A stretch of 38,822 bases of DNA from the NCBI GenBank assembly GCA_016182425.1, contig JACPGP010000024.1, positions 1 to 38,822 of the forward strand. The letters run 5' to 3'. Origin of the DNA: Candidatus Levyibacteriota bacterium (GTDB lineage Bacteria > Patescibacteriota > Microgenomatia > Levybacterales > UBA12049). Below are positions 17,029 through 33,810 of the stretch, in pieces. A program made the position numbers and the translations under genes. Each line of letters starts with the position of its first letter. Position 1 is the stretch's first letter. The notes under the pieces were generated by a model. The model had not been told where the DNA came from, did not search any database, and worked only from the letters and a program-made list of their open reading frames with translations.

Positions 17029-17031
17029 CAC

Positions 17032-17066: not shown

Positions 17067-17072
17067 TAATTC

Positions 17073-17348: not shown

Positions 17349-17607
17349 AAGTAAAATACCAGATTTTAAAAATTATGCAGAAGAAGCAAAGTTTTGGGAT
17401 ACCCATGATTTTACTGATTTTTTGGACGAGGCGAAAGAAATAAAATTAAACTTTAAGGCGAAAGAGCCAAAGGAAGATGCAGTAATTATCAGAATTCGAC
17501 GACCAATGAAGAAAAAGATGCAGGAGTTGGCTGATGAAATGGGACTAAGCTTATCGACGATGATTAGGATGTGGATGATAGAGAAGCTAAAGACGTTGTC
17601 GAAGTAA
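17332..17607 (+). CDS. BrnA/CopG-like RHH antitoxin
   Basis: 'IPDFK...EEAKFWDTHD' plus C-terminal RHH; overlaps the toxin gene. Confidence 0.85.
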   Translation: MKKLIKSKIPDFKNYAEEAKFWDTHDFTDFLDEAKEIKLNFKAKEPKEDAVIIRIRRPMKKKMQELADEMGLSLSTMIRMWMIEKLKTLSK

Positions 17608-17768
17608 CTAGTACTAATTTGGTGTGAGTACCTGCTATGTAGATTTTTTGACGATGTTGTGTTAATCTAACCCCAATTCGAAACAGCAGTCCGCAACCAA
17701 ACCGTTGCGGTATGGAAACAGAAGAATTGAGCCGACTACGTCGGCTAAAGCGGGTGTTGTTTTTAGTT

Positions 17769-17814
17769 ATTTTGGTCATGTACCAAAATGTTCTTTAACA
17801 ACCTGCAATATATC
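17769..17814 (+). promoter_or_regulatory. Unit 1 leader: boxB-like hairpin, boxA-like TGTTCTTTAACAA, left stem arm
   Basis: ATTTTGGT/ACCAAAAT hairpin; motif is one mismatch from E. coli rrn boxA TGCTCTTTAACAA; arm AACCTGCAATATATC at 17800-17814. Confidence 0.7.
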
Positions 17815-18048
17815 AAAGAAAAATCCCAAATTCTAAATCCTAAATTCTAAAAAAATAGGAGGACTTTTGAGTGGAATTTAACTAGCCTATAAAAACATGC
17901 CAGTATTTATGGCCTGATTAAATTTCACTCGAAAGAGGAGCGGAATTTAAAAAATCTAAGAAGAGGTGACTATTGAAGGAAATTTTTGAAAGAAGGCTTT
18001 TGTCCAATGTTGCATCCAAATCATATTTAAGGAAAGGTATACAAAACC

Positions 18049-18399
18049 ATGAAACTTAATGTTTCCCAAGTTGGCGCTTTGACTGTTGCACCTATAATGT
18101 CCTGGATTCCATGCCCAGACAATGCAACTTGTCGCGGCCACAAAATCCACGATGGATCTGCCCGTGGATGGCATTGTAGTAACTCGGACTGTCGGTATGG
18201 CGTGGCGGAAAATAGCCTTGTTTCCATCATGATGCCAACATCAATTACGCATGTGCAGATAGTTTCCGTTGCCCCGGCTTTTGCACCAATGATGATGGCG
18301 GCTCGGAAGTGCCCTGATTGTGGTGCTTCAGTTTACAAAGATCCTCACGGCAAGGGAAAAGCCCTACGCTGTAAAAAGTGTGGCTGGAGGAGTAACTAA
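18049..18399 (+). CDS. Small double zinc-finger/ribbon protein
   Basis: CPDNATCRGH...CSNSDC and CPDC...CKKC; purine-rich SD-like AAGGAAAGG upstream. Confidence 0.7.
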   Translation: MKLNVSQVGALTVAPIMSWIPCPDNATCRGHKIHDGSARGWHCSNSDCRYGVAENSLVSIMMPTSITHVQIVSVAPAFAPMMMAARKCPDCGASVYKDPHGKGKALRCKKCGWRSN

Positions 18400-18400
18400 C

Positions 18401-18613
18401 ATGGCAAAGATAACAGCTGCTCAATTGAAAGTTATCAAAAAGGGTAAGCCCGATCAGTGCCCCGTAGAACCGTGTCCCGAGGACTGTCCTGGACTTAAGT
18501 TGTGTAAGCAGGCACATGCTCCAGAAGAAACCATTGACCTTGCGGCTGTAACTGAAGCTGCGAGAAAGAATTCGCTGGGGTCATTGCAGTTTGATGATTC
18601 GGTGCATGATTAG
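18401..18613 (+). CDS. 70-aa Cys-rich hypothetical protein
   Basis: GGAGGAG SD; ATG 1 nt after the previous stop; CPVEPCPEDCPGLKLC. Confidence 0.65.
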   Translation: MAKITAAQLKVIKKGKPDQCPVEPCPEDCPGLKLCKQAHAPEETIDLAAVTEAARKNSLGSLQFDDSVHD

Positions 18614-18798
18614 TTCCACACCCTGGAGAGATTTGGGCTAGCTTTATTTCGAAAGCTTGAATCCCGCCTTGGAGGTGGATCTGTTGTGAAGATGGGGGCT
18701 GGGGACTTTCCCTAGCCTCCTACCAACAGAGCCGCCTTCGCCGAGCTTCGGCGAGCCACAGCAAAACAAAACAAGATTCCGGTAGTCCGGACCAAAAC

Positions 18799-18813
18799 GA
18801 TATATTGCAGGTT
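18799..18813. repeat. Unit 1 right stem arm
   Basis: GATATATTGCAGGTT is the exact reverse complement of 17800-17814. Confidence 0.9.
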
Positions 18814-18903
18814 TTAAAAATAATTGATAATTAATAGTTAAGAGTGAATAGTTAAATATTCATTAGGTTGCAAAAGTTTTTTAATAATTTATATTATTAG
18901 AAA

Positions 18904-19155
18904 ATGACAGGAAGAAAAGTTCAAAAAGAAGCAGAAGCAGTACAACCAGGGTTTGATGTGATGTTGGTGCAAGAGAAACTACCTGAACCAGAAAATGAAT
19001 TGTTGAAGTTGATGGCTCGTGAGGGTGTGAAAGGCAAGAAGAGAGCGACCCAAACAACTGTGGCACAAAGAGTGGCTATGAATGCATTTAAACCAAGAAT
19101 TGTAATCCATACTGGGACACCAGTACTTGGAGGAGCGCAGGTGGATAAGGATTAA
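18904..19155 (+). CDS. Hypothetical protein
   Basis: 83-aa ORF, convergent with the AbiEii-like gene. Confidence 0.55.
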   Translation: MTGRKVQKEAEAVQPGFDVMLVQEKLPEPENELLKLMAREGVKGKKRATQTTVAQRVAMNAFKPRIVIHTGTPVLGGAQVDKD

Positions 19156-19787
19156 GATAAGTAGGTTTTTCCCAGCCGAAGTGATTCGGAAATAAGAAAC
19201 TTTTTGACTTCATCCCAAGAGATATCAGCCAGCATTTCGGGCATAGCGTCAGCATCTGCGTCTTCAAAATAGGTCATGCTCTTGATAAGGGTATATTTGT
19301 TTTCTTCCAGAACGTGGTACTTTTTGTTGTATAGCTCAAACATTTCCTCGATTGATATATTTTTTTGGTGACAAATTGTATATAGATCGATGAAATCTTT
19401 TTTGGTATTTCGATCGGATATAGCAACTAATTTCATAGCAATGATGTCGTCGATACTAGCAATTTTGATGCCCTGATAATCGTCAGTTGGATTCAATAGG
19501 GGATATTCGTATCGGAAATAACTAAATTTAACATTATTAAATTGGCCGATTAGTGTAGTTCCGGCAGCGGTATCAATATCAAACTTACCAGTAGTTTTTA
19601 GTGAATTGGCTAAAATAATAGGATCAAATTTTAAAGGTGAAAAAAAGTCAAAGTCGATTGAAATACGGTGACCTAAACGTAAGGCGAGTGAGGTACCACC
19701 AGCAAGATAGGCATTATTTAACAATTCACCTTGGCCTAAAATGTCCAGAGCTGTTTTCGCATTTGGCGATAAGACTGTTTCAAACAT
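19152..19787 (-). CDS. AbiEii/AbiGii-like nucleotidyltransferase toxin
   Basis: 'YLAGGTSLAL.LGHRISIDFDFF', 'MKLVAI.DR..KKDFIDLY' motifs. Start MFETV. Confidence 0.9.
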   Translation of the reverse strand: MFETVLSPNAKTALDILGQGELLNNAYLAGGTSLALRLGHRISIDFDFFSPLKFDPIILANSLKTTGKFDIDTAAGTTLIGQFNNVKFSYFRYEYPLLNPTDDYQGIKIASIDDIIAMKLVAISDRNTKKDFIDLYTICHQKNISIEEMFELYNKKYHVLEENKYTLIKSMTYFEDADADAMPEMLADISWDEVKKFLISESLRLGKTYLS

Positions 19788-20032
19788 GCTACCTCCGTAA
19801 GGGGAATATTTAAATAATTTGCCCAAAAAGTACCGGATTTGGCAGAGAAATCCCGTCGCGATTTTAGTGTTTCGACAACTTTATTTATTGAATAATTATG
19901 TAATACCCAGTTAGCAGCGACTAGGTCTCCTTTGTCTAAAAGTCGATTAATTACGTACTGATAATCGCCCTCGAAATCAATTTTATTGATATCGACATCC
20001 CAGAAATATTTGGATAAATTAGCTTTATTCAT
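19736..20032 (-). CDS. DUF6922-like putative antitoxin partner
   Basis: 'YFWDVD...YVINRLLDKGD...W' pattern, upstream of and overlapping the AbiEii-like gene. Confidence 0.75.
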   Translation of the reverse strand: MNKANLSKYFWDVDINKIDFEGDYQYVINRLLDKGDLVAANWVLHNYSINKVVETLKSRRDFSAKSGTFWANYLNIPLTEVACLKQSYRQMRKQLWTF

Positions 20033-20300: not shown

Positions 20301-21452
20301 ATGGACATGCTGAAACGGGCAATAGAAGATAGTATAAATACGTATTTATCAGGCGAAGATACGAAGATATTGTTTGTATGGGGTCCGCGACGTTCAGGAA
20401 AGACGACATTGATTGATAAGTTGTCTAGAGCACTGAAGGTAACAAAATATAACTTTGACTTGGCTTCAGATAGGGACAAGTTTATTCCTCGTCGAGAAAT
20501 ATTGGAAAGAATTGTAGCTGATAATAGGGTTATCTTAATAGATGAAGTTCAAAGCTATCCTGAAGCCACAGTAATATTAAAAATACTTCATGATGAGTTT
20601 AAGATAAAAATCATTGCCACTGGTAGCTCGGAACTGAGACAAAAGTCAGGCAAAGAGTTTGACACTTTGGCTGGTAGATTTAGTGAGATTTACTGCTTGC
20701 CATTATCTGTAACCGAAATTGTAGCCAACGAAAAACCAAAGATGTCTGACGAGTTGGGTTTTTACAAACAAACAATGATAAATTCCCAAATATGGGGTGT
20801 TTATCCGGAAATATTTACCAAAGCTAATTTGGCGGAAAATGAAAGAATTGATCTCTTGCAAAAAGTTTTGGATACGTATGTTCTTAAAGATGTAGTAGAC
20901 ATATATGAATTGAAGAACCAAAAGCTAGCTAAAGATATTTTGACCAAGATTGCCTTACAGCTTGGACAGGAGGTTTCAATCCGAGAAATCGCTGATTCTT
21001 TGGGAGCATATCCGGCGACTGTATCAAACTATATTGAAATATTTATCAAAAATTATATTTTGATAGAGTTACCATCGTTTAAAACAAATATCAGAAAAGC
21101 TGTGTCGGAAAACCGTAAGCTATATTTTTATGATTTGGGGATTAGAAACATTTTGGTTAAAGATTTTCGGGAAATGGAACTACGACCTGACAAGGGTGGA
21201 GTGTTTGAAAACTTTATTATTTCCGAACTGGAAAAGTTGCGGAGACTAAAAAATGTTAAAGTGAATTTTTATTTTTATCGGGAATATGGAGGTAAAGAAA
21301 TTGATCTGATTATTGAGGATTATAAAAAAAATTATGTGACAGTGGAGATAAAAACGAATAAAGGTAATGCAAATAAGATCTTTCCAATAGAAAGCAAATT
21401 GGAAATGATAACGAGTCAAAATTATTTTGAGAAATTGAACAGTATCTTATAA
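20301..21452 (+). CDS. AAA_14 ATPase with DUF4143 (paralog 1)
   Basis: GPRRSGKT, IDEVQ, ATGSS, LAGR, KLYFYDLGIRN, FENF and EIDLI..EIK motifs. Confidence 0.9.
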   Translation: MDMLKRAIEDSINTYLSGEDTKILFVWGPRRSGKTTLIDKLSRALKVTKYNFDLASDRDKFIPRREILERIVADNRVILIDEVQSYPEATVILKILHDEFKIKIIATGSSELRQKSGKEFDTLAGRFSEIYCLPLSVTEIVANEKPKMSDELGFYKQTMINSQIWGVYPEIFTKANLAENERIDLLQKVLDTYVLKDVVDIYELKNQKLAKDILTKIALQLGQEVSIREIADSLGAYPATVSNYIEIFIKNYILIELPSFKTNIRKAVSENRKLYFYDLGIRNILVKDFREMELRPDKGGVFENFIISELEKLRRLKNVKVNFYFYREYGGKEIDLIIEDYKKNYVTVEIKTNKGNANKIFPIESKLEMITSQNYFEKLNSIL

Positions 21453-21494: not shown

Positions 21495-21636
21495 AGCTCA
21501 TGTTGCAAAATGTGGCAAAGCGCTACAAAGTAGTACATCACAGAGTCCTAAAATTTATCCTATAATGGGAAAATTTTGAGGACTTTTTTGGTTTTTGAGG
21601 TTGGCGTATACCTTGAACATTGCGTTTGAGGAAAAA

Positions 21637-21674
21637 GCTTGCCGAGAAAGCACGTTAACAATCTGAATACGAAA
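21637..21674 (+). promoter_or_regulatory. Unit 2 leader: weak hairpin, boxA-like GCACGTTAACAA, left stem arm
   Basis: GCTT...AAGC hairpin; boxA-like motif 21650-21661; arm ATCTGAATACGAAA at 21661-21674. Confidence 0.6.
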
Positions 21675-21873
21675 ATAAGGGCTTCTAAAATAATGGTTTG
21701 AAAAGAGTTATTTTTGAGGGGCCGAAAGATATCTACCACTGTTTTTTGGTGATAAGTATCGACGGTTTCCCTCAAGAAAATACTAGTTTGGGAAATCGAC
21801 TGGCTGCATAGTCGGGTAACATACCCGTTTTTTACTTTTTCTGTCGTGCCGAATCAGATCAAATGGAGGTCCT

Positions 21874-22758
21874 ATGAGTAGGCGAATGTTGTGGTTGAAA
21901 GCGTTAGGGGTCCTTTACCTCCTAATGTCTGTGTTTGGCAGTGTATTTCCAGTAAAGGCGCAAGGCGAAGGGTTTTTGTGGCCGTATGTTGGGGTGTCTG
22001 GCAGGGATTGGTATCCGACCCAAGGTTGCCATAGTGATGGCTGGGGAGGTGCTGTTGGTGGCATTCCAAGTACCTGCGCAGTCGATTTTACTCGCTACTC
22101 AGGTGGTGAGAAAGTCAATTGTGGTGAACCAGCCATGGCTCCAGTTTCAGGAGACTTTACGAATTTTGGAGCTGACGCTGGAGGAAGTACTACGGCGGTG
22201 ATTAAAGGCCAAGCCTATTGGGTGTTTTTTGTGCACGGAGATTTTGTCCCTAGCGGATATTTGAAGCAGGGCGATATTTTCGGCTATGAAAATACTCATG
22301 GTAACAGCTCTGCTTGTCACTGGCACATGTCTGTGTTTGATGTAAATCAGAGTAGCTGGGTAAATCCAAATACTTTGCAGACAGTTGGCGTGCCAGCGGG
22401 GGCAGGACAAGTTGTCAACCTCGATGTTGCCAAAGTCCAGTTCCAGATGCAAACATGGACAGTGGTTGGCCCGGATTACCTGGATGGACTTATTCCGCCC
22501 ACGGTGACGTCCGTAACGGCTCCTGATCCAAATAAGGTCCAGATTGATGTCGAAAATCCAATTGATGGCTCTGAGTCGTCTTGGACATTTGACCAGTCTA
22601 AACTTCCCTATCAAGTTGATACGGGTAAAGTTGAACAATTAGTTGAGGAGAAGAAAGACAATTTCCTCACCTGGATTGTGGTCGCTATTGTTGCGTATAT
22701 GTTGTTCAAAAAAAGTCCGAGTCGTCACCGTGAAGATGATGATGAAGAAGAGGAGTAA
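21874..22758 (+). CDS. Secreted M23-like metallopeptidase with C-terminal TM and acidic tail
   Basis: Signal peptide (VKA-Q); H...AVDF, FVHG and 'GNSSACHWH' (HxH) motifs; GGAGG SD. Confidence 0.7.
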   Translation: MSRRMLWLKALGVLYLLMSVFGSVFPVKAQGEGFLWPYVGVSGRDWYPTQGCHSDGWGGAVGGIPSTCAVDFTRYSGGEKVNCGEPAMAPVSGDFTNFGADAGGSTTAVIKGQAYWVFFVHGDFVPSGYLKQGDIFGYENTHGNSSACHWHMSVFDVNQSSWVNPNTLQTVGVPAGAGQVVNLDVAKVQFQMQTWTVVGPDYLDGLIPPTVTSVTAPDPNKVQIDVENPIDGSESSWTFDQSKLPYQVDTGKVEQLVEEKKDNFLTWIVVAIVAYMLFKKSPSRHREDDDEEEE

Positions 22759-22763
22759 AAAAA

Positions 22764-24362
22764 ATGAACGCGTATTTTGATAATGTGTCAAAGTATTTCC
22801 TTCCTAAGGTCGTTAGCTCTTTCCCTGTCGGATGGGAAGACTGGATGGAAAATAATCCCCAAAGTGAACTGGCGATTGAGGTGATGTACCTTGGTGCAGC
22901 CCTGAGTCCAAGTGACCAACACAGATTTGAACGCGAGTTGAAAATGGCTATGGGTGGCAAAGCACAAGCTGTGCCTCCGCCCCCGCCTCAACAAGCACAA
23001 GCTGCACCCGCACAAGCTGTGCCTCCGCCCCCGCCTCAACAAGCACAAGCTGCACCCGCACAAGCTGTGCCTCCGCCCCCGCCTCAACAGGTAAAACCGG
23101 CGGAAGCTGAAAAAGGTCCTGGGTTCATGGCGGCAGTTCGAGAAAAGGCTGGGAACGCTTTGGGTGGTGTGAAAGATTTCGCGTCTCGCCCTATTTTTGG
23201 TGGGATCCCGTTGTGGATCGTCGTCGTTGGCGCTTTGCTGCTCTTTAACTCGGGAATCCTGAATGGGCTTGGTGATTTGCTTCCCAAAGGATCGAGTGGC
23301 GGTACTTCAACTGGTTTGACTGGCAGTCCGAGCGTGTGGATTAAGACGGCGGCTGGAGTGACGGTTCCGATCAATAAGATGCCATTTCCCAAGATTCCGT
23401 TTGCCGATATGGAAATGCGCAAGCTGATTGCGGCTCTATTGCTGTTGGTCAACCCGATTTTGGTTGCTTTCGACAATGCCGCAGCACGCCCAAACCAGGA
23501 ACCAAATCACAAAAGCAACATTGGTTTCGTGCTGTACTTTGTCGCAGCGATGTTGTGGGGTTATTGGGCGGTGATCATTGCTGGTTTTTCCTTGTTTTTG
23601 ACCTTAAGGAGTCGGGAGGGCAATACATCTTCGATTGGAAACCAGTTTTTCCTGCTGATTTTAGGTTTGTGGATTTGGTTCTCCAAGTTAGCCCCGATTG
23701 TAAATGGCTACCTGGACGGACTGCACAACCCGATGATTAGCTGGCTGCCCACATTGCTGCGCTACTTGTTTAATGGCGAGAACCTCAGACCTCTGGCGGC
23801 GATTGCCTTGGTTGGTTTCCTCATCTATTCAGTGCTGAGCGATATGTATGACAGCTCGACACTGATTACTTTGATGGGCTTCCAGCTGGCATGGTTCCTT
23901 GGAACTGGCGTGTTTCTCTTCTGGGAAAAAATGCCAATGCTTTACCAGATGCCGTTCTTCTATTTCCAGTTTGCGCTGGTAGTGATTGCGATTTTTATCG
24001 AACAGAAACAGGTTGGTTTGTTGAACTTGCCGAAGGGTATCCTGATTTTGTTTGGGGTGATGTACTTTGTCTCCCTTGGAATCCGCGATTATTTTGACAT
24101 TGATCCAAACGGGACTACTGTCTGGCGCTACATGACTCAGCCGGTTATCTTCCTGTACATGATCGTCCTCTGGCTGTCCTATGCCTTTGGCAAAGCTGTC
24201 TCAGGAGGGTCGAAAGTGTTCGCTGGGTTGTACCAGACGCTGGGAAGCTGGTTTGGTCAGTTGGTGCCGATTGCTGGACTTCAAGTACCGTCAGACGGAT
24301 TGATTACCCTCAACCTGGTTTTGGCTGGCGTACTGGTGTTTACTCAAGTTATTTTATATTGA
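22764..24362 (+). CDS. Polytopic membrane protein with Pro/Gln/Ala repeat
   Basis: About 10 or more hydrophobic segments; GAGGAG SD. Confidence 0.85.
   Translation: MNAYFDNVSKYFLPKVVSSFPVGWEDWMENNPQSELAIEVMYLGAALSPSDQHRFERELKMAMGGKAQAVPPPPPQQAQAAPAQAVPPPPPQQAQAAPAQAVPPPPPQQVKPAEAEKGPGFMAAVREKAGNALGGVKDFASRPIFGGIPLWIVVVGALLLFNSGILNGLGDLLPKGSSGGTSTGLTGSPSVWIKTAAGVTVPINKMPFPKIPFADMEMRKLIAALLLLVNPILVAFDNAAARPNQEPNHKSNIGFVLYFVAAMLWGYWAVIIAGFSLFLTLRSREGNTSSIGNQFFLLILGLWIWFSKLAPIVNGYLDGLHNPMISWLPTLLRYLFNGENLRPLAAIALVGFLIYSVLSDMYDSSTLITLMGFQLAWFLGTGVFLFWEKMPMLYQMPFFYFQFALVVIAIFIEQKQVGLLNLPKGILILFGVMYFVSLGIRDYFDIDPNGTTVWRYMTQPVIFLYMIVLWLSYAFGKAVSGGSKVFAGLYQTLGSWFGQLVPIAGLQVPSDGLITLNLVLAGVLVFTQVILY
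22962..23089 (+). repeat. 48-bp coding tandem repeat, ~2.7 copies (AQAVPPPPPQQAQAAP)
   Basis: Identical units start at 22962, 23010 and 23058. Confidence 0.95.
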
Positions 24363-24379
24363 CCTAAAGGAGGGTCGGT

Positions 24380-25063
24380 ATGTCGAAGAAAAAGTCTACC
24401 GACCCTACGGTTGGTATCGGAACGATTGCACTGGTGGTGATTGTGCTGGGTCTGTACTCGGGAAATCTGAAAGTTTCCGTGCCGCAGGCTTCTACTCAAT
24501 TGCCACCAACAAACTCCGTAGCCACAAGCAGTGTTCTTGAGGCTGCCAACGGAGCTGACGTCCCCAACCCACTTTCTGAACGGGTTGACGCAAAACAACT
24601 ACCCCCTTCACATCAAGGTGGTGAAGTTATATACAATGGCGGTGTACTTAGGGGTTTCCCTGACGCTGGTGTTGAAACTTCAGTAATTCCTGAAAGCGCC
24701 AAGAAAGTATCAGCAATTTTTAGCTGGTACTGGCCAAATCTGGGAGGAACAAACTGCAGTAGTTTCCGCAGTGATCTTCCTGATCGGGCCTTTAGTTTTC
24801 CTGATGCCGACCACTCAAGTGGTTGGTGTTGGTCGAGAATGAGCTCTGGGGAGAATTGGGAATACTACGTTGGTAGAGCAGTCGCTTGCCCCCAAGAATG
24901 GCCGTTTGGAACAAAGGTGTATGCCTTTGGACGTGAATGGCTGTGCTTGGATCATGGCGGAGCGATTGTGACTGAAAATGGTGAGTCTTGGATAGATTTT
25001 TTGACCCCAAGTCCACCGATGAGCTATCGAACCCATTTTGATGTTTGGGTGCTTTACCCTTAG
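24380..25063 (+). CDS. Membrane-anchored 3D-domain-like (MltA/RlpA-type barrel) protein
   Basis: 'AVACP..WPFGTKVY...CLDHGGAI...WIDF' resembles the 3D consensus 'VAVDP..IPLGT.V...DTGGAI...IDI'; AAGGAGG SD. Confidence 0.65.
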   Translation: MSKKKSTDPTVGIGTIALVVIVLGLYSGNLKVSVPQASTQLPPTNSVATSSVLEAANGADVPNPLSERVDAKQLPPSHQGGEVIYNGGVLRGFPDAGVETSVIPESAKKVSAIFSWYWPNLGGTNCSSFRSDLPDRAFSFPDADHSSGWCWSRMSSGENWEYYVGRAVACPQEWPFGTKVYAFGREWLCLDHGGAIVTENGESWIDFLTPSPPMSYRTHFDVWVLYP

Positions 25064-25076
25064 AAAGAGGATTACC

Positions 25077-27266
25077 ATGGCTACAATTCCATATCGAGAA
25101 ACAATAATTGAATATTTCAACAAGTTGAACGTGTCGTATCAAATTTCGTCAACGGCGAAGGTTGATGTCGATTTTCCAGCTGCGTTCGTGGGGGCAATAA
25201 TTGCGCAGAAGGGAACCGTGATCTGGTTGGAAAATGAACATGCTTGGGCGGTGCAATTTGGCAGTGAACCTGCGAAGTTGTTAACTCAGCCCAAAGCACA
25301 ATCGGCGCCGGTGCCTGCAAAAGCAAAAGCAGTTGCCGCGGCTGTCGTGAAACCAGTTCGAAAGGTTTCGAAAAAGTCGTCTTTTGGAATTCCCCAGTTT
25401 GGATTGTTGGCGGCGGTGCTGTTTTTTGCCCTCTCTGGCGGAAAGCTGAACCTTCCTGGAGCATCAACACCTGACGATCCTAATGCTTACCAATCCATGG
25501 CTACAGCCAGTGCCACCCCGGAACTCGTGGGTGATCCTGATGCATTTTGCAGTCAGGAACTGGGCAAGACCGTAACTGGTGTGAAGGTTTTTGAAGTTAC
25601 TGAGAGCGGTTTGACTGGCACAACGAAGGATTTATACCCTCAGGCTGAGATGGCGACATATTTTTATGCCAAAGAAGTTGAGCGAGGGATGCCATTTCTG
25701 ACCGTAAGTTGGTTGTTTCAGAGCGCCGATGCGAACGCAGAATTTGAAAAAGCGATTGCTCTGGATACTGCCAAGATGGACCCCAACGTTGACTGCGTAG
25801 ATCAGAGTTGCAGTAAGTTGTGGACGTCCTCGATTAACCTCGCCAATGATTACAGAATTGAGACGTTTTATAACGAGAACCGTGATCTGACTGACCCGCT
25901 CTATTACAAAAACGTTCCCGCGGAAATGTTTACTGCTTTCCGCGAATGGATCGTAGAAGTGGTCGCGGCCGGAAAGAATGGTACATCGTATCCTCGGTGT
26001 ATTGAAATTCCGGCGGTTAAGGATATGGCTGAGGTTTCCAAAGAAGCAAAAGACTGGCTATTAAACAATCAGCCTCAGCGCGGGAACGCACAACTGCCCT
26101 CATCAGGATCAAAAGGTCCTCGACCGACCGATCAGCCGCTGATCATTACCGCAACCCCGACCTTGGGGTATGTTGGGTCAAATGCTCCGGCATTTGATAA
26201 GTACGCGGCGGTAGTTGGTGCAACAGATGCCCAAACGGCATTTACAGCCGATCCTGACCAGCAGTGCTATGTCAACCTGACTGTGAACTGGCCCGACTTT
26301 ACCATGACCTCAAGTTTGAATGAGGTGATTCGCATTTTGGGCCCGAGCTCGTGGACTTTTCGTTCCATAGGGGACGGGACATTTCAGGCTCGGAGTTATG
26401 AGACTGATGCGAACGGCTATGCCGCTTGTGCCAAGGTGTTGAACCTTGAGACGGAATACTCGGCAGGCACATGGAGGATTGGCAACACTGGAGTGGTGGC
26501 GACTTTGCATTGGGAGAACTACGGTCTGCCCGACGAAATAAAAGTAGGTAGTGCGTTTATTTTCCCAGTCTACTCGGACCAAGTTGTCGCCGAGAGCGAG
26601 AGTTACGACATCATCCCGACAAGTACTCCGTCGGTCAGTTCAGCTTCGATCTACGATCTGTATGATGTTATGATCAGCAAAGGCTGGACAGAACTGGTAT
26701 CAACGGGATGCCCATTCGAACCTATCAATGGGTCGGTGACTACAAGCAGTGCGTTTACCGTTGATTTCGGTTACAACGATGTCCTCGCCGGGCAAAAGTA
26801 CTCGAAGGATGGGTGTGACCTTTTTGGGGGGTTGCATTTTACGACTTACGACCCGGGGCAAGGGGATTCGCAAGTATTATATGGCGGTAAGTTATATGTC
26901 TACCCTTATACCAAAGTCCAGTACCAACCCTCTCCCACTCCTGGTGGACCAACCTATCCACCGGACGGATCGCAGATTAGTCTCGCAGATCTATTAAAAT
27001 ACGAGACTGGGTATGGTGAAAAGGCAAACTCTGTGGGTTGTAAGAATGGGTCGATCCCTGGTTGGCCGAATCATGTTCCTGTCAAGACCAATGTTTATAA
27101 CTATTTGGTGGATTTCAGCGCAATTGCAGGACAAACCAATGGGTTGTGTGTTTATGACCCCGTAAAGATGACTACTTCCTCAGTCCTGTACTGGAGCATT
27201 TACGAGTACCAGGGTTACGGAAGTATAATCCAGTATGGTGGGTATTGGTTTGCTCCATTCAAATAA
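25077..27266 (+). CDS. Large single-pass membrane/extracytoplasmic hypothetical protein
   Basis: AAGAGG SD before ATG 25077; TM near residue 110; TATP linkers; paired Cys. Confidence 0.85.
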   Translation: MATIPYRETIIEYFNKLNVSYQISSTAKVDVDFPAAFVGAIIAQKGTVIWLENEHAWAVQFGSEPAKLLTQPKAQSAPVPAKAKAVAAAVVKPVRKVSKKSSFGIPQFGLLAAVLFFALSGGKLNLPGASTPDDPNAYQSMATASATPELVGDPDAFCSQELGKTVTGVKVFEVTESGLTGTTKDLYPQAEMATYFYAKEVERGMPFLTVSWLFQSADANAEFEKAIALDTAKMDPNVDCVDQSCSKLWTSSINLANDYRIETFYNENRDLTDPLYYKNVPAEMFTAFREWIVEVVAAGKNGTSYPRCIEIPAVKDMAEVSKEAKDWLLNNQPQRGNAQLPSSGSKGPRPTDQPLIITATPTLGYVGSNAPAFDKYAAVVGATDAQTAFTADPDQQCYVNLTVNWPDFTMTSSLNEVIRILGPSSWTFRSIGDGTFQARSYETDANGYAACAKVLNLETEYSAGTWRIGNTGVVATLHWENYGLPDEIKVGSAFIFPVYSDQVVAESESYDIIPTSTPSVSSASIYDLYDVMISKGWTELVSTGCPFEPINGSVTTSSAFTVDFGYNDVLAGQKYSKDGCDLFGGLHFTTYDPGQGDSQVLYGGKLYVYPYTKVQYQPSPTPGGPTYPPDGSQISLADLLKYETGYGEKANSVGCKNGSIPGWPNHVPVKTNVYNYLVDFSAIAGQTNGLCVYDPVKMTTSSVLYWSIYEYQGYGSIIQYGGYWFAPFK

Positions 27267-27337
27267 ATTTTAGGTTGGTCGCAGGGCTCATAGCTTCATC
27301 GTAGCCACCCTGCTACCAACAAGGAAGGAAGTAAGGC

Positions 27338-28618
27338 ATGAAAAGTTCAACTTTGAAAATGATCATGGTGTTAATCGTCGGTTGGTATTTAGTGACCAAT
27401 GGAGTAATTTCAAAAAACGATAACGCGATCGATCCAACTTCTACCCCAGCCGAGGCTGGTTCAAATGCGGCGGCGGTCCAAACTGCTGTTGAAAATGTGG
27501 CACAAATGACGCCTACCCCAGGATCTGCTGGTGCAGGCCAGATGGAAACAGCCGTCCCGACCCAAACCATCATCGTCGACCTTGGTGATGCCAATAAGAT
27601 GATAGAACTTATGCAAGGGAAAATGACCCGAGAAATGGTCAACTGGCTAATAACGGCACGATTGTCTACGGGTGGTGGAGCTCATGCTTGCTTCGTCGCT
27701 TGGTATGATGAGCCGTTTGATGATATCACTGTACCTGCTGGTCACCCTGGTATTCCTATGTGGCAGGTCATTGATGGTGGAAACGTCATCACAGCCGAAA
27801 AAATGGGTCTTGGCGGATGCAAGACGACGATAAAACTGGGCGACTTGCTTTCTGGTATCCCGCCGAGTTTTTTGCAAGACCCCGCCAACTATCAATTAAA
27901 CGAGGTTCCTTATACCTGGACAACTGGTACAACCACCATTACCGAAAGTCGGGTGGAAGTCACCGTGACAGTGCCCTATGCTTTTGGTGGACTGGTAGTT
28001 CAGCCTGGTAACGAGGTAACTCTCCAGACAGTATTGCCAAACGAAGCGGCTGCCTCAGTTCAGGACTTCTGGAAATATGTACTATCCCTTGGGGGAGATG
28101 TTTCCAAGGTCTGGGTTAAGTACGGGGCACTCGACAATTCCGCTGACAATCTGGCAATATTGGATGTCATTGCTCCGATTACGGACTGGCGCACAGGGGC
28201 TCGTTCGACCGATCACCTTGACGCACTGCGCGAACTGACCATGCAATCGGTATTGCCAGGGAGTCCTGCTTATGAAACAATCCGCAAGATCGTTTGCGAA
28301 AGTGCGGACGAGGCAGGGTTCAAAGATATTAGTGGTTTTGATCAAAGCGGCGCCCCAGTTACACTGGATAAGTGCACCGTTAAGGTGAACTTAGTTCCGA
28401 TCAACCCGAATGAACCCAATACCTGGTACCAACTGGATTCGTTGCCTCAGACCTGGTCCACGACTCCTGAGCAAATTGCCCAGCTCCGACCCGTAATTAT
28501 TCCGGCAGATTTTGAAGCTTATAACTTCGACAATGCGTACGTTTTATATGCGCCGGAAATAAACCAATCTAACTGGTGGAGTCAAGTACCTGAAGCTTTG
28601 CGTCAGTACGCTCCGTAA
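27338..28618 (+). CDS. Secreted/membrane-anchored hypothetical protein
   Basis: N-terminal hydrophobic helix, PT-rich linker; AAGGAAGG upstream. Confidence 0.85.
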   Translation: MKSSTLKMIMVLIVGWYLVTNGVISKNDNAIDPTSTPAEAGSNAAAVQTAVENVAQMTPTPGSAGAGQMETAVPTQTIIVDLGDANKMIELMQGKMTREMVNWLITARLSTGGGAHACFVAWYDEPFDDITVPAGHPGIPMWQVIDGGNVITAEKMGLGGCKTTIKLGDLLSGIPPSFLQDPANYQLNEVPYTWTTGTTTITESRVEVTVTVPYAFGGLVVQPGNEVTLQTVLPNEAAASVQDFWKYVLSLGGDVSKVWVKYGALDNSADNLAILDVIAPITDWRTGARSTDHLDALRELTMQSVLPGSPAYETIRKIVCESADEAGFKDISGFDQSGAPVTLDKCTVKVNLVPINPNEPNTWYQLDSLPQTWSTTPEQIAQLRPVIIPADFEAYNFDNAYVLYAPEINQSNWWSQVPEALRQYAP

Positions 28619-28622
28619 AAAA

Positions 28623-28636
28623 TTTCGTATTCAGAT
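28623..28636. repeat. Unit 2 right stem arm
   Basis: TTTCGTATTCAGAT is the exact reverse complement of 21661-21674 and starts 4 nt after the last stop codon. Confidence 0.9.
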
Positions 28637-28700
28637 ACACTCTCGCTGTATTCAGTCAACAATTTTTGTTTTGCTGGGTACAGCTTGGGGGCAATTCTTG

Positions 28701-28759
28701 CCTGTTGTGGTTCGTGTCTGGCTTCCCCTTTGGGAAGCCAGGCAAACGAACGCAACAGG
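28701..28759 (+). other. Long imperfect hairpin downstream of unit 2
   Basis: CCTGTTG..GTTCG.TGTCTGGCTTCCC / GGGAAGCCAGGCA..CGAAC.CAACAGG; no U-tract on +. Confidence 0.75.
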
Positions 28760-29057
28760 TGAGAAATAAAAAATTTATTGATCAAATATATTTTAATAAT
28801 GTTTTTGATGAGTAAATTCTGAAGATGAAGTAAGGTGGAATGTGGTATGCACAACACTTATCTTAGGATTGTAAATTTATTGATGGTGGTCTGAAGAATT
28901 GAAAGCTAATAGTAAACCAGTATTGTATGCAACTGATCTTGATGCAGTAAGGAGTATTGAGGTGGCACCGTTGGTGCCTAGAGTGGTAGGAAGAGTTGGA
29001 ATGCAGATAGGAGTAAAATGTCAGGACAAGCTGTGAGGGAATTTGGAGAAGTGAGAA

Positions 29058-29146: not shown

Positions 29147-30307
29147 TTAAATTAGGTCAATCCAGTTTTTATTGACGATATTGGCGGAGATAGGGCAGGT
29201 TTTTGAATTGGAAATGAGATAACTTTGATTGATTTGTTTACCAAAGATTTTTTGAGCTTTGACTAAGGATGAAGCGTGAATGGGGCGAATTGTGGCAGTG
29301 GATTTTATTTCGACCAGATCAACTTGTCCGTTGTTTTCCAGAATGAGGTCGACTTCAAGTCCATCTCGGGTGCGGAGGAAATACATTGATGGTTTTTGGC
29401 CATGATGATAGTACTGTTTCCAGTAATCAATGATAATAAAAGTCTCAAAAAGTGAACCAAAATAAGGACTGTTGGTAAGTCCGGCGCTAGAGGTAATTCC
29501 CAAAAGGTGACTGACTAAACCAGTGTCGGTAAAATAAATCTTGGGACTTTTGATTACTCTTTTGCCAATATTTTGGAAATAGGGATAAAGTAAAAAGATC
29601 TGATAACTAGCTTCGAGAAGAGAAAGCCAACGTTTAGCAGTAGGCACGGAAACACCGATTTCTCGAGCAATTGAACTTAGGTCTAAGATTTGACCAGTAC
29701 GAACAGCAACTGATTTTAAGAAAATTTGAAATAAATTTAAATCACCTACTTGACTCAGGTTTCTAATGTCTCTTTCAAGAAAAGTTCTGATATATGAAGA
29801 TTGCCACAGATTGTGATCAATTTTATGATTGTTGGCAACTTCAGGATAATTACCCCGTAAAATAATGCCAGACAAATCGATAGATTTTTTATTGGTACCG
29901 ATGAGTTGTTCTGATAGTGAAAAGGGGAGTAAAGAGAGAATGGCAGCGCGTCCGGCAAGGGATTGGTTGACATGGTGCATTAGAGAAAAATTTTGAGAGC
30001 CGGTGAGAATCCAGCGTCCAGGCTGACGGTGGTCATCAATATCGGTTTTGATATAGGAAAGTAACTCGGGAACATACTGAATTTCGTCGATAATGGCTGG
30101 TTTCTTGATGTTGTTTAAAAAAGTGTGGGGGTCACTTTTTGCTAAAAGTTGGATGTCAGGGTTTTCGAGATTATGATAATCGTATTTTTTGCTAAAAGTA
30201 TTTTTAAGAAGGGTGGTTTTGCCTGATTGACGGGGACCAGTCAAAATTACAGCGGGAAATGTTTTGATTATTTTTTTGATGATATTGGTAATATCTCGGG
30301 GTTTCAT
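29147..30307 (-). CDS. AAA_14 ATPase with DUF4143 (paralog 2)
   Basis: GPRQSGKT, IDEIQ, LTGSQ, SLAGR, PKIYFTDTG and EVDLI..EIK motifs. Confidence 0.92.
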   Translation of the reverse strand: MKPRDITNIIKKIIKTFPAVILTGPRQSGKTTLLKNTFSKKYDYHNLENPDIQLLAKSDPHTFLNNIKKPAIIDEIQYVPELLSYIKTDIDDHRQPGRWILTGSQNFSLMHHVNQSLAGRAAILSLLPFSLSEQLIGTNKKSIDLSGIILRGNYPEVANNHKIDHNLWQSSYIRTFLERDIRNLSQVGDLNLFQIFLKSVAVRTGQILDLSSIAREIGVSVPTAKRWLSLLEASYQIFLLYPYFQNIGKRVIKSPKIYFTDTGLVSHLLGITSSAGLTNSPYFGSLFETFIIIDYWKQYYHHGQKPSMYFLRTRDGLEVDLILENNGQVDLVEIKSTATIRPIHASSLVKAQKIFGKQINQSYLISNSKTCPISANIVNKNWIDLI

Positions 30308-30572: not shown

Positions 30573-30620
30573 CCCGATGTGAATTGTTCGGGAAGTACAT
30601 TAACAGTCAAAAAGAGTTGT
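30573..30620 (+). promoter_or_regulatory. Unit 3 leader: hairpin, boxA-like GTACATTAACA, left stem arm
   Basis: CCCGA...TCGGG hairpin; boxA-like motif 30595-30605; arm CAGTCAAAAAGAGTTGT at 30604-30620. Confidence 0.65.
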
Positions 30621-30727
30621 AGAGGTTGGGTCAAACCTGCCCTGTAATATGTACAGGGTAAATTTGACTCAACCTCAAAATTTTGAGGATTTTAAACCTG
30701 TCTGATGGACATAAAAAGGAGAATGCC

Positions 30728-31369
30728 ATGATTGAAATACCGGTTTTCGGAACAAATTGTAAAGTACTGAATCATATGTATACATATTTAGTGGTATCGG
30801 TGGTTTTGGCAATTGAGTTGTTCGTTGAAAGTGTGGGATTTAGTTTGAAGCTGGTTGAATTTGTGATCCTGCTGATTTCAGCAGTTGCGCTTATTTACAG
30901 TGAGAGGAGCCCGATTCATAAAGGCGTTAAGGTCATGTGGATTGCGATTGTTTGGTTGAGCTTGTATTTCGGTTATTACATGAGTGGGATTGTAGTAATG
31001 ACTTTTTATGTCTCATTGGGAATTGGTGAAATCATCAACGTGTCACGAGATTACAAGAAGTACTCGAAGATGGCCATTAAAGACTGGGTAATGCTGGTAA
31101 TTGCAGTATCTGCTGTGTTGGTAAAGACCTTGCTTGATAGTTGGTCTATGTACCAAGGTGGAGAATTTATTGCTGCAATACTTATTATTGCGATGGCCTG
31201 GGTCACCATAGTTGGGAAGGATGTTTTTAATCGAAACATTCAAATAACACTGCTGATTCTGTCATTGCCGTTTGTGGGTTCACCGCTTTTTCTATTTGCG
31301 GTCATTGTCACTGTTGCGGTCATCAATGCATCGATACGTTTTGCTCACCATGTTGGTGATATCCAATAA
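30728..31369 (+). CDS. Polytopic membrane hypothetical protein
   Basis: AAAGGAG SD before ATG 30728; about 7-8 hydrophobic segments. Confidence 0.8.
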   Translation: MIEIPVFGTNCKVLNHMYTYLVVSVVLAIELFVESVGFSLKLVEFVILLISAVALIYSERSPIHKGVKVMWIAIVWLSLYFGYYMSGIVVMTFYVSLGIGEIINVSRDYKKYSKMAIKDWVMLVIAVSAVLVKTLLDSWSMYQGGEFIAAILIIAMAWVTIVGKDVFNRNIQITLLILSLPFVGSPLFLFAVIVTVAVINASIRFAHHVGDIQ

Positions 31370-31430
31370 CTTTTCATGGAAAGGTACGGGTGAGGACTTT
31401 GTCCTCACCCGCCCATGAAACCACAACACA

Positions 31431-31447
31431 ACAACTCTTTTTGACTG
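31431..31447. repeat. Unit 3 right stem arm
   Basis: ACAACTCTTTTTGACTG is the exact reverse complement of 30604-30620. Confidence 0.92.
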
Positions 31448-31568: not shown

Positions 31569-32702
31569 ATGTATATTCAAAGAGAGGTTGAGTCGGCAAT
31601 TAAAAAAAGTCTGTTTAAAGGTAAAATAGTGATTGTTTATGGCGCCAGGCAGGTTGGTAAAACAACTTTGGTAAAAAAAATGGCGGAGAGTTTTGGTAGA
31701 CCTTATGGTTATTTAAATTGTGACGAGCTGGATATTTTAAGTCAATTTCAGAGAGCGGGGAACTCGGTAGCGTTAAGGCAAATGTTGGGACAGAATCAGT
31801 TGATAGTTATTGATGAAGCACAGAGAGTCAAAAATATTGGTCTGAAGTTGAAACTATTGATAGATAATTATCCCGAGATTCAACTGTTGGTGACCGGTTC
31901 TTCTTCTTTTGATTTGGCAAATGAGGTGAGTGAACCGCTGACTGGCAGAAGTGAAGAATTTTGGTTGTTCCCTTTTTCAGTTAGGGAGCTGTGGAAGGAA
32001 AGTGACAGGATAACGCGGGAAAGGCAGCTCGAAAAATGGCTGATTTACGGAAGTTATCCAGGGGTATGGAACCTGACTTCCGAAGAGGAAAGAGCGGTGA
32101 AAGTAAAGCAGTTGGCGGCAAACTATTTGTATAAAGATGTCATAAAGTTTAATGAAATAAAAAACTCTGAACTGGTACTGAAACTGTTGCAAGCCTTAGC
32201 ACTCCAAATAGGTAATGAAGTATCCTATAACGAGTTGGCGAAGACAATTGAGGTTAGTAAACAAACTGTGGCATCGTACGTTGAGTTATTGGAGAAGGCG
32301 TTTGTGATATTTGCTATTAGACCATTTTCGGGGAATATGAGACAAGCTTTGAATAAGAAGAGGAAAATATATTTTTTGGATGTTGGGATTCGGAACGCAA
32401 TTATAAACAACCTAAACCCAATGTCGATTCGTGATGATGGAGGGAGGCTGTGGGAGAACTTTGTCGTAGCTGAAAAGTATAAACAACAATTGGGACTGGG
32501 GTACAAGACCAATCTTTATTTTTGGAGAACGTATCAGGGTCAAGAAGTTGATTTGGTGGAAGACATTGGGGGAAAGTTGATTGGCTGGGAGATAAAACTT
32601 AAGGGAAAGAGAAACAAACAACCTAAGGACTGGGGGACTTATGAAAATTCAAGCTGGAAGGTGGTTGATAAAGAAAATTTTTGGGAATCGGTAAATTTCT
32701 AA
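31569..32702 (+). CDS. AAA_14 ATPase with DUF4143 (paralog 3)
   Basis: GARQVGKT, IDEAQ, TGSSS, EPLTGR, KIYFLDVGIRN, LWENF and EVDLV..EIK motifs; TTGACA-17-TATATT-7-ATG. Confidence 0.92.
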   Translation: MYIQREVESAIKKSLFKGKIVIVYGARQVGKTTLVKKMAESFGRPYGYLNCDELDILSQFQRAGNSVALRQMLGQNQLIVIDEAQRVKNIGLKLKLLIDNYPEIQLLVTGSSSFDLANEVSEPLTGRSEEFWLFPFSVRELWKESDRITRERQLEKWLIYGSYPGVWNLTSEEERAVKVKQLAANYLYKDVIKFNEIKNSELVLKLLQALALQIGNEVSYNELAKTIEVSKQTVASYVELLEKAFVIFAIRPFSGNMRQALNKKRKIYFLDVGIRNAIINNLNPMSIRDDGGRLWENFVVAEKYKQQLGLGYKTNLYFWRTYQGQEVDLVEDIGGKLIGWEIKLKGKRNKQPKDWGTYENSSWKVVDKENFWESVNF

Positions 32703-32803: not shown

Positions 32804-32835
32804 GATTGCCACGTCCCTGCGCTCCTCGCAATGAC
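32804..32835. repeat. REP/RPE-like palindrome in the rpsB leader
   Basis: GATTGCCACGTCCCTGCGCTCCTCGCAATGAC; tail TCGCAATGACGT recurs at 36641. Confidence 0.7.
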
Positions 32836-32859
32836 GTGTATTATAAAAAGGATAAATAT

Positions 32860-33810
32860 ATGGCAGACACAAAAAAAAATAAAGGAAGTCAAGCCGCCTC
32901 CGTTAAAACTACGGCGAGCCGCGGAAAAACCGTTAATCGGACTGGTAAGAAGTTGATCGAGAAAGCATTAGTGGTCAAAGCTAAAACAGTAGCCAAGGTC
33001 AATGCTGAAAATATCAAAAAACATAACGAAAAACTGATTAAAGACAAAAAGGAACTGGAGAGAAAAAAAATAGAGGGTGAAACCGCCTACGTGGTTACTT
33101 CGGCGGTCAAACAAGATAAAAAATACGACCTAACTATTGATCTAAAAGACTTGTTGGAAGCGGGTTGCCATCTAGGACACAAAGTCAGCAAGACCCATCC
33201 CAAAGCCAAGGTAAACATCTATATGGCCAAAGACGGAATTCAGATAGTCGATCTTCTCAAAACTAAAACAGCTTTAGAAAAAGCCTGTAATTATATTTAC
33301 AACGCCAGACGAAATGGTAAACAAATAGTGCTCTTGGGCACCAAAAGACAAGCAAGGGAAGTAGTTAAGAGAGTCGCGCTTGATGCTGGAGTGGGGTATA
33401 TAACTGACCGTTGGTTGGGTGGAACCATCAGTAACTGGGAACAAATCAAGAAAAACATCAAAAAATACAATGATATTAAAGATGGTCTTTCGAAAAATAA
33501 ATTCACCGATAAATCTAAAAAAGAACTAGGTGATCTGGCCAAAGAGCAAATCAGACTAGAAAAAATGATTGGCGGTCTGGCAACTACCGAAAAAATGTTT
33601 GACATTTTGATGGTGGTTGATGCTGGCTTTGAAAAAACAGCGTTGAAAGAATGCAAGATGAAAAATGTGAAGACAGTAGCCATTACTGATACTGATTCTG
33701 ACCCACGAAAAGTTGATTTTGCAATTCCGGCTAATGACGACTCGGTCAAATCAATCAATATCATTATTGAAGAAATCGGAAAAGCTATCAAAGCTGCTGG
33801 TACGAAATAG
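32860..33810 (+). CDS. rpsB: 30S ribosomal protein S2 with long basic N-terminal extension
   Basis: LLEAGCHLGH, LLGTKRQA, RWLGGTISNW and DTDSDP...IPANDD motifs. Confidence 0.96.
   Translation: MADTKKNKGSQAASVKTTASRGKTVNRTGKKLIEKALVVKAKTVAKVNAENIKKHNEKLIKDKKELERKKIEGETAYVVTSAVKQDKKYDLTIDLKDLLEAGCHLGHKVSKTHPKAKVNIYMAKDGIQIVDLLKTKTALEKACNYIYNARRNGKQIVLLGTKRQAREVVKRVALDAGVGYITDRWLGGTISNWEQIKKNIKKYNDIKDGLSKNKFTDKSKKELGDLAKEQIRLEKMIGGLATTEKMFDILMVVDAGFEKTALKECKMKNVKTVAITDTDSDPRKVDFAIPANDDSVKSINIIIEEIGKAIKAAGTK

Follow-up and report, generated by a model that had tools for sequence, protein, structure and literature searches.

A five-gene envelope operon of foreign composition with predicted wall-cutting domains in a Levybacteria genome

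What does a compact block of five genes for membrane-bound or secreted proteins, two of them resembling peptidoglycan hydrolases, do in a Patescibacterial genome? The question is raised by a Candidatus Levyibacteriota bacterium (NCBI GenBank assembly GCA_016182425.1), whose contig JACPGP010000024.1 carries such a block on the plus strand at 21874-28618. The window analyzed here is that entire contig, C35, 38,822 nucleotides (nt) long; the genome, G000, amounts to 0.797 Mb in 38 contigs and is 88% complete. Our answer, offered tentatively and with a little less than even confidence, is that the operon is a horizontally acquired or exchanged, fast-diverging envelope module in which tethered wall-cutting domains would work with new membrane and surface proteins. 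Apart from type IV pili and type IV secretion, little is understood of how Patescibacteria attach to and exploit their hosts, and a transferable set pairing two kinds of predicted wall-cutting domain with three uncharacterized membrane or surface proteins is a testable candidate for part of the host interface.

The operon and its composition

The five open reading frames (ORFs) are codirectional and closely packed. Their spacers measure 5, 17, 13, and 71 nt, and each of the five starts has a Shine-Dalgarno-like site ahead of it. The encoded proteins, p1 to p5, are as follows (lengths in amino acids [aa]).

21874-22758, plus strand: p1, 294 aa, with a signal-like N terminus, an M23/LytM-like core at about residues 35 to 165, a linker, a C-terminal hydrophobic stretch, and an acidic tail
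22764-24362, plus strand: p2, 532 aa, with a helical N-terminal domain, a P/Q/A-rich tandem repeat, and about 10 membrane helices
24380-25063, plus strand: p3, 227 aa, with an N-terminal membrane anchor and a C-terminal 3D/MltA-like domain at about residues 150 to 215
25077-27266, plus strand: p4, 729 aa, with a predicted cytoplasmic N-terminal part of about 100 aa, a helix at residues 103 to 121, and an outer part of about 600 aa
27338-28618, plus strand: p5, 426 aa, with an N-terminal anchor and an outer domain with four cysteines

Hydropathy assigns one N-terminal helix each to p3 and p5, a single helix (residues 103 to 121) to p4, and about 10 helices, behind an N-terminal part of about 140 aa, to p2; the C-terminal hydrophobic stretch of p1, a putative membrane helix, and the acidic tail behind it were read directly off the sequence. 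Cysteines number 4, 0, 4, 10, and 4 in p1 through p5. The proline-rich repeat of p2 consists of three tandem 48-nt units (22962-23105) encoding AQAVPPPPPQQAQAAP, a copy number that is the value of the assembly, public contigs breaking exactly there. An alternative TTG start for p4 at 25038 would give a protein of 742 aa; we place the start at the ATG at 25077 because an AAGAGGA site precedes it and the 729-aa form is also the one in a protein database. The ORFs, their tight spacing, the Shine-Dalgarno sites, and the hydropathy profiles bear out the original prediction of a five-gene operon of membrane or secreted proteins, together with its polytopic protein carrying a polyproline repeat (p2, with its helices and three repeat units) and its two large cysteine-containing extracytoplasmic proteins (p4 and p5, with one helix each). 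No model in Pfam (at E values up to 10), NCBIfam, or PADLOC matched any of the five proteins, and PHROGs gave two marginal matches only, both to families of unknown function. Searches elsewhere in the genome found no paralogues of the five, and p4 is not paralogous to p5.

The block stands out in base composition. Its guanine-plus-cytosine (GC) content is 0.47 to 0.51, against 0.396 ± 0.031 for the genome (1461 windows of 2 kb), and it is the longest among the 13 GC-rich stretches of the genome. GC content at third codon positions (GC3) is 0.42 to 0.55 in the five genes, against 0.34 ± 0.06 in 506 long ORFs. The plus strand of the window shows a strong skew of G over C, 0.2 to 0.45 in 1-kb windows whatever the gene orientation. 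It falls to about 0 to 0.15 inside the island (22-29 kb), and the stretch at 18-20 kb also has a weaker skew. The stretch is carried by four public groundwater runs from a single study, two of which may be the source sample. In two runs, Logan contigs of 20.8/8.75 kb and 10.8 kb span the left and right boundaries, do not differ from the assembly at a single position, and have equal sequencing depth over island and flank (36 versus 34.6 in one run and 24.9 versus 22.6 in the other). The two lower-depth runs hold pieces of both island and flank at an identity of at least 99%. The operon block is compositionally foreign yet physically real.

The block is also sporadic in its occurrence. It lies in a variable stretch of the contig between topA (ending at 13234) and rpsB (starting at about 32806), and the island was absent from every relative searched. 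A profile of the p2 family run against 400 genomes of the phylum gave, apart from G000, two matches below 20 bits, confined to the low-complexity N-terminal part. A profile of the p1 family gave three weak matches of 25 to 28 bits among 400 genomes of the class and none among 24 genomes of the same family, and the neighborhoods of the three matches, all in genomes of family f4, contain no relatives of p2 to p5. For p5, a relative turned up in 1 of 400 other genomes of the phylum. In the 20 relatives compared, all distant, topA and rpsB are on separate contigs or 30 kb apart.

Protein families of the operon

Eight relatives of p1 were found by a word-indexed search at 42 to 65% identity, all with the same layout of signal, core, and C-terminal anchor; one of them is on a 19-kb contig at NCBI. 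Across the nine family members, H53, D55, D71, C83, H121, H142, C148, H149, and H151 are invariant. A profile of the family matches one built from 17 bona fide M23 domains of genomes of the Levybacteria order, in the candidate phyla radiation (CPR), over 85 columns (hhalign, 86.3%, E = 4.8e-6), pairing H121 with the histidine of the M23 "AHL" motif and H149 and H151, which 9 of 9 members have, with those of HxH. The p1 sequence taken singly gives 28.5% against the same M23 profile. Its best match by sequence in the PDB, to the M23 domain of phi29 gp13 (3csq), is weak (E = 0.044) and falls on the same stretch, as does a match to a PHROG of unknown function (E = 0.0014). In the HxxxD motif, which lies outside the hhalign match, D71 is invariant and the histidine position is occupied by T67, with C68 adjacent. 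In P0022, one of the relatives, the p1-type domain is preceded by a canonical Peptidase_M23 domain, so that the altered and the standard form stand in natural tandem. From these sequence relationships, p1 is classed as a predicted M23-derived domain with an altered metal site, and the family is new here in that sense.

The evidence for p3 has a similar form. Against a profile of 23 CPR 3D domains, taken from 3D-positive genomes of the phylum, p3 matches over 47 columns (hhalign, 86.9%, E = 4.2e-6), and it aligns with the 3D protein of a CPR locus, L042, at 53% identity over 32 aa (BLASTP, E = 6e-9). Three aspartates characterize the 3D protein YuiC, namely D129, D151, and D162, of which the last is catalytic according to the YuiC report (PMC4499186). 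In p3, the first of these columns holds C170, the second D191 (in DHGGAI), and the third E202, or D206 if four inserted residues are allowed. The L042 protein likewise has a cysteine at the first position. Of 301 phylum genomes searched, 29 have the 3D family (PF06725); of 21 searched in the Levybacteria order, G000 included, none does. A sequence search of the PDB with p3 gave no match. In the ESM Atlas, its nearest neighbors, at 0.93, are unnamed Chloroflexota and viral clusters; next, at 0.92, comes a viral cluster with an 83% share of PF06725. We treat these as leads only. Taken together, p3 has a predicted divergent domain of the 3D/MltA, double-psi barrel type, and it may well be active.

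The polytopic protein p2 belongs to a family that we describe here for the first time. An exhaustive HMMER search of 1.84 billion representatives recovered 11 relatives at 24 to 41% identity, and the members share invariant residues W151, P202, R242, Q245, R282, R284, G286, D363, E413, P460, G498, and D511, as well as the motifs DNxxxRPNQ and RxRxG. Pfam and PHROG searches of all 12 members found no family, except for one sub-threshold SHOCT match (E = 0.033). An AlphaFold2 (AF2) model built with the family alignment has a mean predicted local distance difference test score (pLDDT) of 73, with 80 to 95 over most of the membrane part. Foldseek found nothing for this model at an E value of 0.001 or better (best E, 0.28), and VIA gave a best Z of 5.7, which is below the noise stated by that tool for helical bundles. 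A word-indexed search of 5.8 billion clusters with the family profile returned only the family itself, a blank that reflects the word filter, because the exhaustive search did give 11 relatives. Pattern searches with narrower family alignments found nothing in GTDB genome contigs, JGI metagenome contigs, or IMG/VR. By its predicted topology and conserved motifs, p2 represents an undescribed family of membrane proteins with about 10 helices and no fold match.

The two large surface proteins are more isolated. In the word-indexed search of the 5.8 billion clusters, p4 found only itself, and it gave no usable Atlas match, no meaningful PDB match, and no phage or plasmid match. For p5 there was likewise no meaningful PDB match and no phage or plasmid match. 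The search of 400 genomes of the phylum identified one distant relative of p5 (E = 2.8e-7) in G057, a genome from another family of the phylum. The two proteins align at 24% identity over 412 columns, near full length (BLASTP, E = 9e-14), with two cysteines kept; a joint profile of both found nothing in the PDB. Among 89 genomes of the order to which G057 belongs, G057 alone has a p5-type gene. The relative lies in a cluster of four genes on the minus strand (L067, 7653-14059; G057 contig C7, about 436.7-443.1 kb), flanked by leuS and an L25 gene, with a GC content of 0.42 to 0.52 compared with 0.35 to 0.40. Its four products are as follows.

g530, 530 aa: N-terminal anchor, Peptidase_M23 domain (1.4e-16), two central helices, and SLT lytic transglycosylase domain (4e-17)
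g566, 566 aa: single-pass protein with 11 cysteines
g400, 400 aa: the p5 relative
g553, 553 aa: A/P/K/Q-rich N-terminal part of about 200 aa, followed by eight or nine helices

Judged from domain content and topology, the two loci share four kinds of parts: a predicted endopeptidase plus a predicted glycan cutter, a large cysteine-rich single-pass protein, a member of the p5 family, and a polytopic protein of about 540 aa with a low-complexity N terminus. A dedicated wall-cutting surface module is made more plausible by this cluster, because the p5 relative there adjoins a fused M23-SLT hydrolase.

We picture the module as follows. The five genes would be transcribed as one operon. The M23/LytM-type domain of p1 would cut peptide cross-links and the 3D/MltA-type domain of p3 would cut glycan strands, both tethered to the membrane and facing outward. 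Together they could make a local gap in the wall, be it the wall of the cell itself or of a host cell on which it sits. Such a gap would allow p4 and p5 to assemble their large, disulfide-bonded outer parts or to extend them through it. The p2 protein would serve as a membrane platform, and the N-terminal domains of p2 and p4 would reach cytoplasmic partners by way of flexible low-complexity linkers. The enzymatic activities, the target wall, and the physical complex are what we infer from the families and their arrangement. A bolder extension, which we consider unlikely though worth stating, is that the operon and the G057 cluster both represent a surface apparatus so far undescribed, which ultra-small epibionts would exchange horizontally and which would be independent of type IV secretion. 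In it, host-wall breach by the tethered domains would be combined with three new protein families (p2-, p4-, and p5-type) as contact or conduit, and rapid sequence turnover would reflect adaptation to different hosts. The operon may perhaps be an accessory that alters host range.

Several results weigh against reading the operon as such a module. Neither Peptidase_M23 (PF01551) nor the 3D model (PF06725) matched p1 or p3, respectively, in the Pfam searches or in a six-frame scan of the genome. The original prediction of an M23-like peptidase and a 3D-domain-like protein is upheld by the profile matches, and for p3 by BLASTP, but not by the curated models, the first zinc histidine of p1, or the first aspartate of p3, which is a cysteine. 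Given that it has no canonical first zinc-ligand histidine, p1 could be a noncatalytic binding or regulatory domain, and p3, without the first of three aspartates, could be one as well. The single-sequence AF2 model of p1 has a pLDDT of 42, too low to be usable, and the Atlas model of p3 (pLDDT, 0.56) has low-confidence neighbors with 3D, YqbQ, CHAP, or M23 domains at template modeling (TM) scores of 0.38 to 0.44. Between the two loci, the p1-family profile gives 0.2% against the single G057 M23-SLT protein and the p2 family 0.4% against g553 (hhalign), and p4 matches g566 at an E value of 0.053 (BLASTP). Because only p5 is detectably similar, the case for one and the same module is built on one homologous gene plus like architectures. 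Absence from relatives also dates the acquisition poorly, because the nearest genomes compared are distant, with ribosomal protein S2 just about 40% identical. If the operon serves ordinary maintenance of the cell's own wall, or is a dead remnant of a mobile element, its significance is modest.

Alternative explanations and neighboring genes

The main rival to an acquired envelope module, unlikely in our estimate but the first to be weighed, is that the operon is leftover or cargo of the mating or entry apparatus of a mobile element of the monoderm conjugation type. In that case p1 and p3 would be VirB1-type hydrolases, p2 a VirB6/PrgH-like channel, and p4 and p5 VirB8-like or adhesin-like proteins, with the ATPases encoded elsewhere or the set no longer working. 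An anchored peptidase combined with a lytic transglycosylase is typical of monoderm conjugation (PrgK, TraG). A survey of Patescibacterial type IV secretion (PMC12102498) describes VirB1-type hydrolases as often carrying M23 domains and, for this class, VirB6 as scarce and VirB8 as undetected, which leaves room for unrecognized analogues. The foreign composition and sporadic occurrence of the island would fit as well, and there is a VirD4-type ATPase in the same window. The original prediction had suggested that the operon might work with this upstream ATPase and called it VirB4-like. By family scores, the gene is of the VirD4/TraD type (TrwB_AAD_bind, 3.3e-7; TraG-D_C, 0.0029; VirB4_CagE, 0.0017). 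It is a core gene of the lineage, found in 21 of 21 Levybacteria-order genomes including G000 with closest matches 47 to 52% identical, and has a paralogue on contig C32 (49% identical). It sits 5.7 kb from the operon on the opposite strand, in a region of the usual strong G-over-C skew and with three toxin-antitoxin-type modules in between, and the island is absent from the relatives that were searched, so the proposed link between the two is not supported. The same survey counts 5,713 Patescibacterial type IV coupling protein homologues, mostly far from virB4 (PMC12102498).

Other results speak against a mating apparatus. Genes for VirB4, a relaxase, an integrase, or replication are all missing from the island. 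Matches of the AAA_10 type lie on other contigs in G000 and no closer than 18 kb to the G057 cluster, and CagE_TrbE_VirB (PF03135) was not found in G057. The 12 p2-family members, bar the SHOCT match already mentioned, belong to no Pfam or PHROG family, and the p2 model has no fold match. Scans of IMG/VR with p1, p2, p3, p4, p5, and the p1-family alignment found no relative, tblastn against 50,697 INPHARED phage records (queries p1 to p5 and the p2 relatives P0005 and P0013) gave no match, and neither did tblastn against PLSDB plasmids (p2, p4, p5, and the p1 relative P0019). In the collections searched, the operon thus corresponds to no prophage or conjugative module already described. Hallmarks of a phage-derived module were not found, with PHROGs yielding the two marginal matches to families of unknown function and IMG/VR and INPHARED blank, and the island has no VirB4-type ATPase, coupling protein, or relaxase of the kind that marks a monoderm type IV secretion module.

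Somewhat more improbable is a module for growth or division of the cell's own wall, in which a polytopic scaffold would steer tethered hydrolases on that wall only, with no role toward a host. SpoIID/SpoIIM/SpoIIP and FtsEX-EnvC offer an analogy, being tethered hydrolases steered by a scaffold. Membrane tethering would hold both hydrolase-like domains near the cell's own wall, genes for MreB and penicillin-binding protein 2 (PBP2) are in the same window (8066-10818), and degenerate LytM domains are often regulators rather than enzymes. However, a core role in growth is hard to square with foreign composition and sporadic occurrence: the p1 profile found nothing in the 24 same-family genomes, p2 had no credible match in 400, and a p5 relative is known from 1 of 89 genomes of its order. 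This explanation also leaves two large cysteine-rich outer proteins without a role.

We consider it quite improbable that the inverted repeat at the boundaries of the island is functional, whether as the termini of a nonautonomous mobile cassette or as the recombination sites of an invertible 7-kb on/off segment. The features at the two ends of the operon are as follows.

21537-21566: promoter-like site, outside the left inverted-repeat arm
21661-21674: left arm of the inverted repeat, just before the rise in GC
21706-21784, plus strand: long, imperfect hairpin that forms part of the 5' leader, immediately inward of the left arm
21813-21827: short terminator-like stem with a T-run, just ahead of the p1 ribosome-binding site
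28623-28636: right arm of the inverted repeat, 4 nt past the p5 stop, at the fall in GC
28695-28765: strong GC-rich hairpin downstream of the operon, with no T-run after it and a single occurrence in the genome

The arms are 14 nt long, 100% complementary, and 6948 nt apart, which confirms the predicted distance of about 6.95 kb and the placement of the right arm directly behind the last stop. Both coincide with the two GC boundaries, each lying within about 100 nt of a GC change point (naive post hoc probability, about 3e-4), the promoter-like site is outside the left arm, and two other repeat-bracketed units are nearby, one of which (17794-17814 and 18799-18819) also encloses a GC-rich islet. 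Perfect inverted pairs of this length are nevertheless common by chance in the window. There are seven distinct perfect pairs of at least 14 nt; 14-mer inverted matches number 12, compared with 4.6 ± 2.2 in 30 Markov simulations (maximum, 10); and the arm sequence with up to two mismatches finds two or more matches in 15 of 100 shuffles. As a repeat it is not above chance, and its position is the unusual feature. The window showed neither a transposase nor a recombinase, and the island no target duplication; arms, hairpins, and island have no second copy in the genome, and the three bracketing repeats have no common sequence. Contigs of the four runs, which hide rare variants, show no inversion joint, and the G057 cluster has no boundary repeat. 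The original reading of the arms as stems has nothing beyond position in its favor. Of the marks of an insertion sequence, transposon, or miniature inverted-repeat transposable element-like cassette, the terminal 14-nt repeat is present, but no transposase, further copy, or target duplication was seen. Rfam gave merely generic hairpin matches at both operon ends, and no RNA run is among the public runs carrying the stretch.

An assembly chimera, in which another organism's DNA was joined into a Levybacteria contig, would account for the abrupt change of GC and skew at both ends, but it is very unlikely. In two runs, independent contigs continue across both boundaries at equal depth and without a difference, the lower-depth runs carry both kinds of pieces, and contigs break at one place only, the 48-nt tandem repeat within the island. 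All four runs, however, come from one study, and two of them may be from the source sample.

Apart from the operon, the window holds ordinary chromosomal genes and a number of accessory ones.

Contig C35: fmt, def, mreB, a class B penicillin-binding protein gene, topA, rpsB, tsf, frr, and an M50 protease gene, all ordinary chromosomal genes
8066-10818: MreB and PBP2 genes
13875-16169, minus strand: VirD4/TraD-type ATPase, by family-model scores
16807-17028: Phd-like gene, in a toxin-antitoxin-type run at 16807-20032
17073-17607: BrnT-like toxin and CopG-type antitoxin, same run
19152-20032: AbiEii and DUF6922, same run
20301-21452, 29147-30307, and 31569-32702: three AAA_14/DUF4143 ATPases, matches to the PADLOC candidate PDC-S01

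The VirD4-type gene has a GC3 of 0.476, above the genome mean. The three AAA_14/DUF4143 paralogues match the defense candidate PDC-S01 at E values of 1e-84 to 3e-138, with two of them placed on either side of the island and oriented toward it. A composite transposon formed by these flanking genes is out, as their identity is just 27 to 31% in the two pairs compared. The ORF at 30683-31369 encodes a multihelix membrane protein of 228 aa with no Pfam or PADLOC match, and it is the single ORF enclosed by a 28-nt inverted repeat (82%) at 30604-30631 and 31420-31447. The repeat at 17794-17814 and 18799-18819 is 21 nt long (90%) and encloses a GC-rich, low-skew islet of about 1 kb; at 18.1-18.7 kb, where GC is about 0.5, there are overlapping small ORFs (18049-18399 and 18320-18613) with zinc-ribbon-like motifs. 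The unit resembles a second islet of distinct composition that has an inverted repeat at its boundaries. Two topoisomerase I genes are present in the genome (11201-13234 and G000:C18:12030-13979), 51% identical, and in 20 related genomes topA mostly gives one full-length match, with two partial matches in several. The rpsB ORF (32806-33810, with a TTG start) has about 100 surplus N-terminal residues unmatched in 20 relatives, and the Pfam S2 model covers residues 116 to 330 only. Either the true start is farther downstream, which is probably the case, or the N-terminal extension is lineage specific.

Comparison with known systems

Viewed as an envelope module with tethered wall-cutting domains, the operon can be compared with known enzymes and machines at several levels. 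With the M23 family (LytM, lysostaphin, and phi29 gp13), the p1 family aligns from the G-x-P strand to HxH and the following NP, and the histidines of "AHL" and "HxH" are invariant in it. It differs in that p1 has no Pfam match and reads T67/C68-A-V-D71 in place of HxxxD, and in that the p1 family has a motif C-H53-x-D55-G-W-G upstream, conserved cysteines, and a C-terminal membrane anchor. In comparison with MltA, YuiC of Bacillus subtilis, and Bd3285, p3 keeps the second aspartate and a carboxylate at or near the catalytic third position, whereas its first aspartate is replaced by cysteine and there is a four-residue difference around the catalytic position. Its four cysteines and its membrane anchor at the N terminus also set p3 apart. 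Bd3285 of Bdellovibrio is a 3D-type enzyme used on another cell's wall (PMC10127604).

The Patescibacterial type IV secretion locus next to oriC, as described by Quinonero-Coronel et al. 2025 (PMC12102498), is like the operon an envelope gene set of an epibiotic lineage with wall hydrolases and polytopic proteins. That locus is phylum-wide, whereas the operon is sporadic, foreign in composition, and without an ATPase or pilin. In Southlakia epibionticum, the same work reports, peptidase and lysozyme homologues adjoining virB4 are essential for epibiotic growth (PMC12102498). Monoderm conjugation systems differ from the operon, whose locus has no VirB4, VirB3, coupling protein, or relaxase, and the family and fold searches with p2 showed no similarity to VirB6, TrbL, or PrgH. 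There is likeness with PrgK of pCF10, TraG of pIP501, and the Patescibacterial VirB1-type proteins, which, going by the same source (PMC12102498), have in common with the operon a membrane anchoring and the pairing of a peptidase-type domain with a glycan-strand-cutting one, and which are alike in being encoded beside polytopic and single-pass membrane proteins. In the operon, the two predicted activities are on separate proteins and the glycan-cutting part is 3D/MltA-like rather than SLT; the G057 cluster has exactly such a fused M23-SLT protein.

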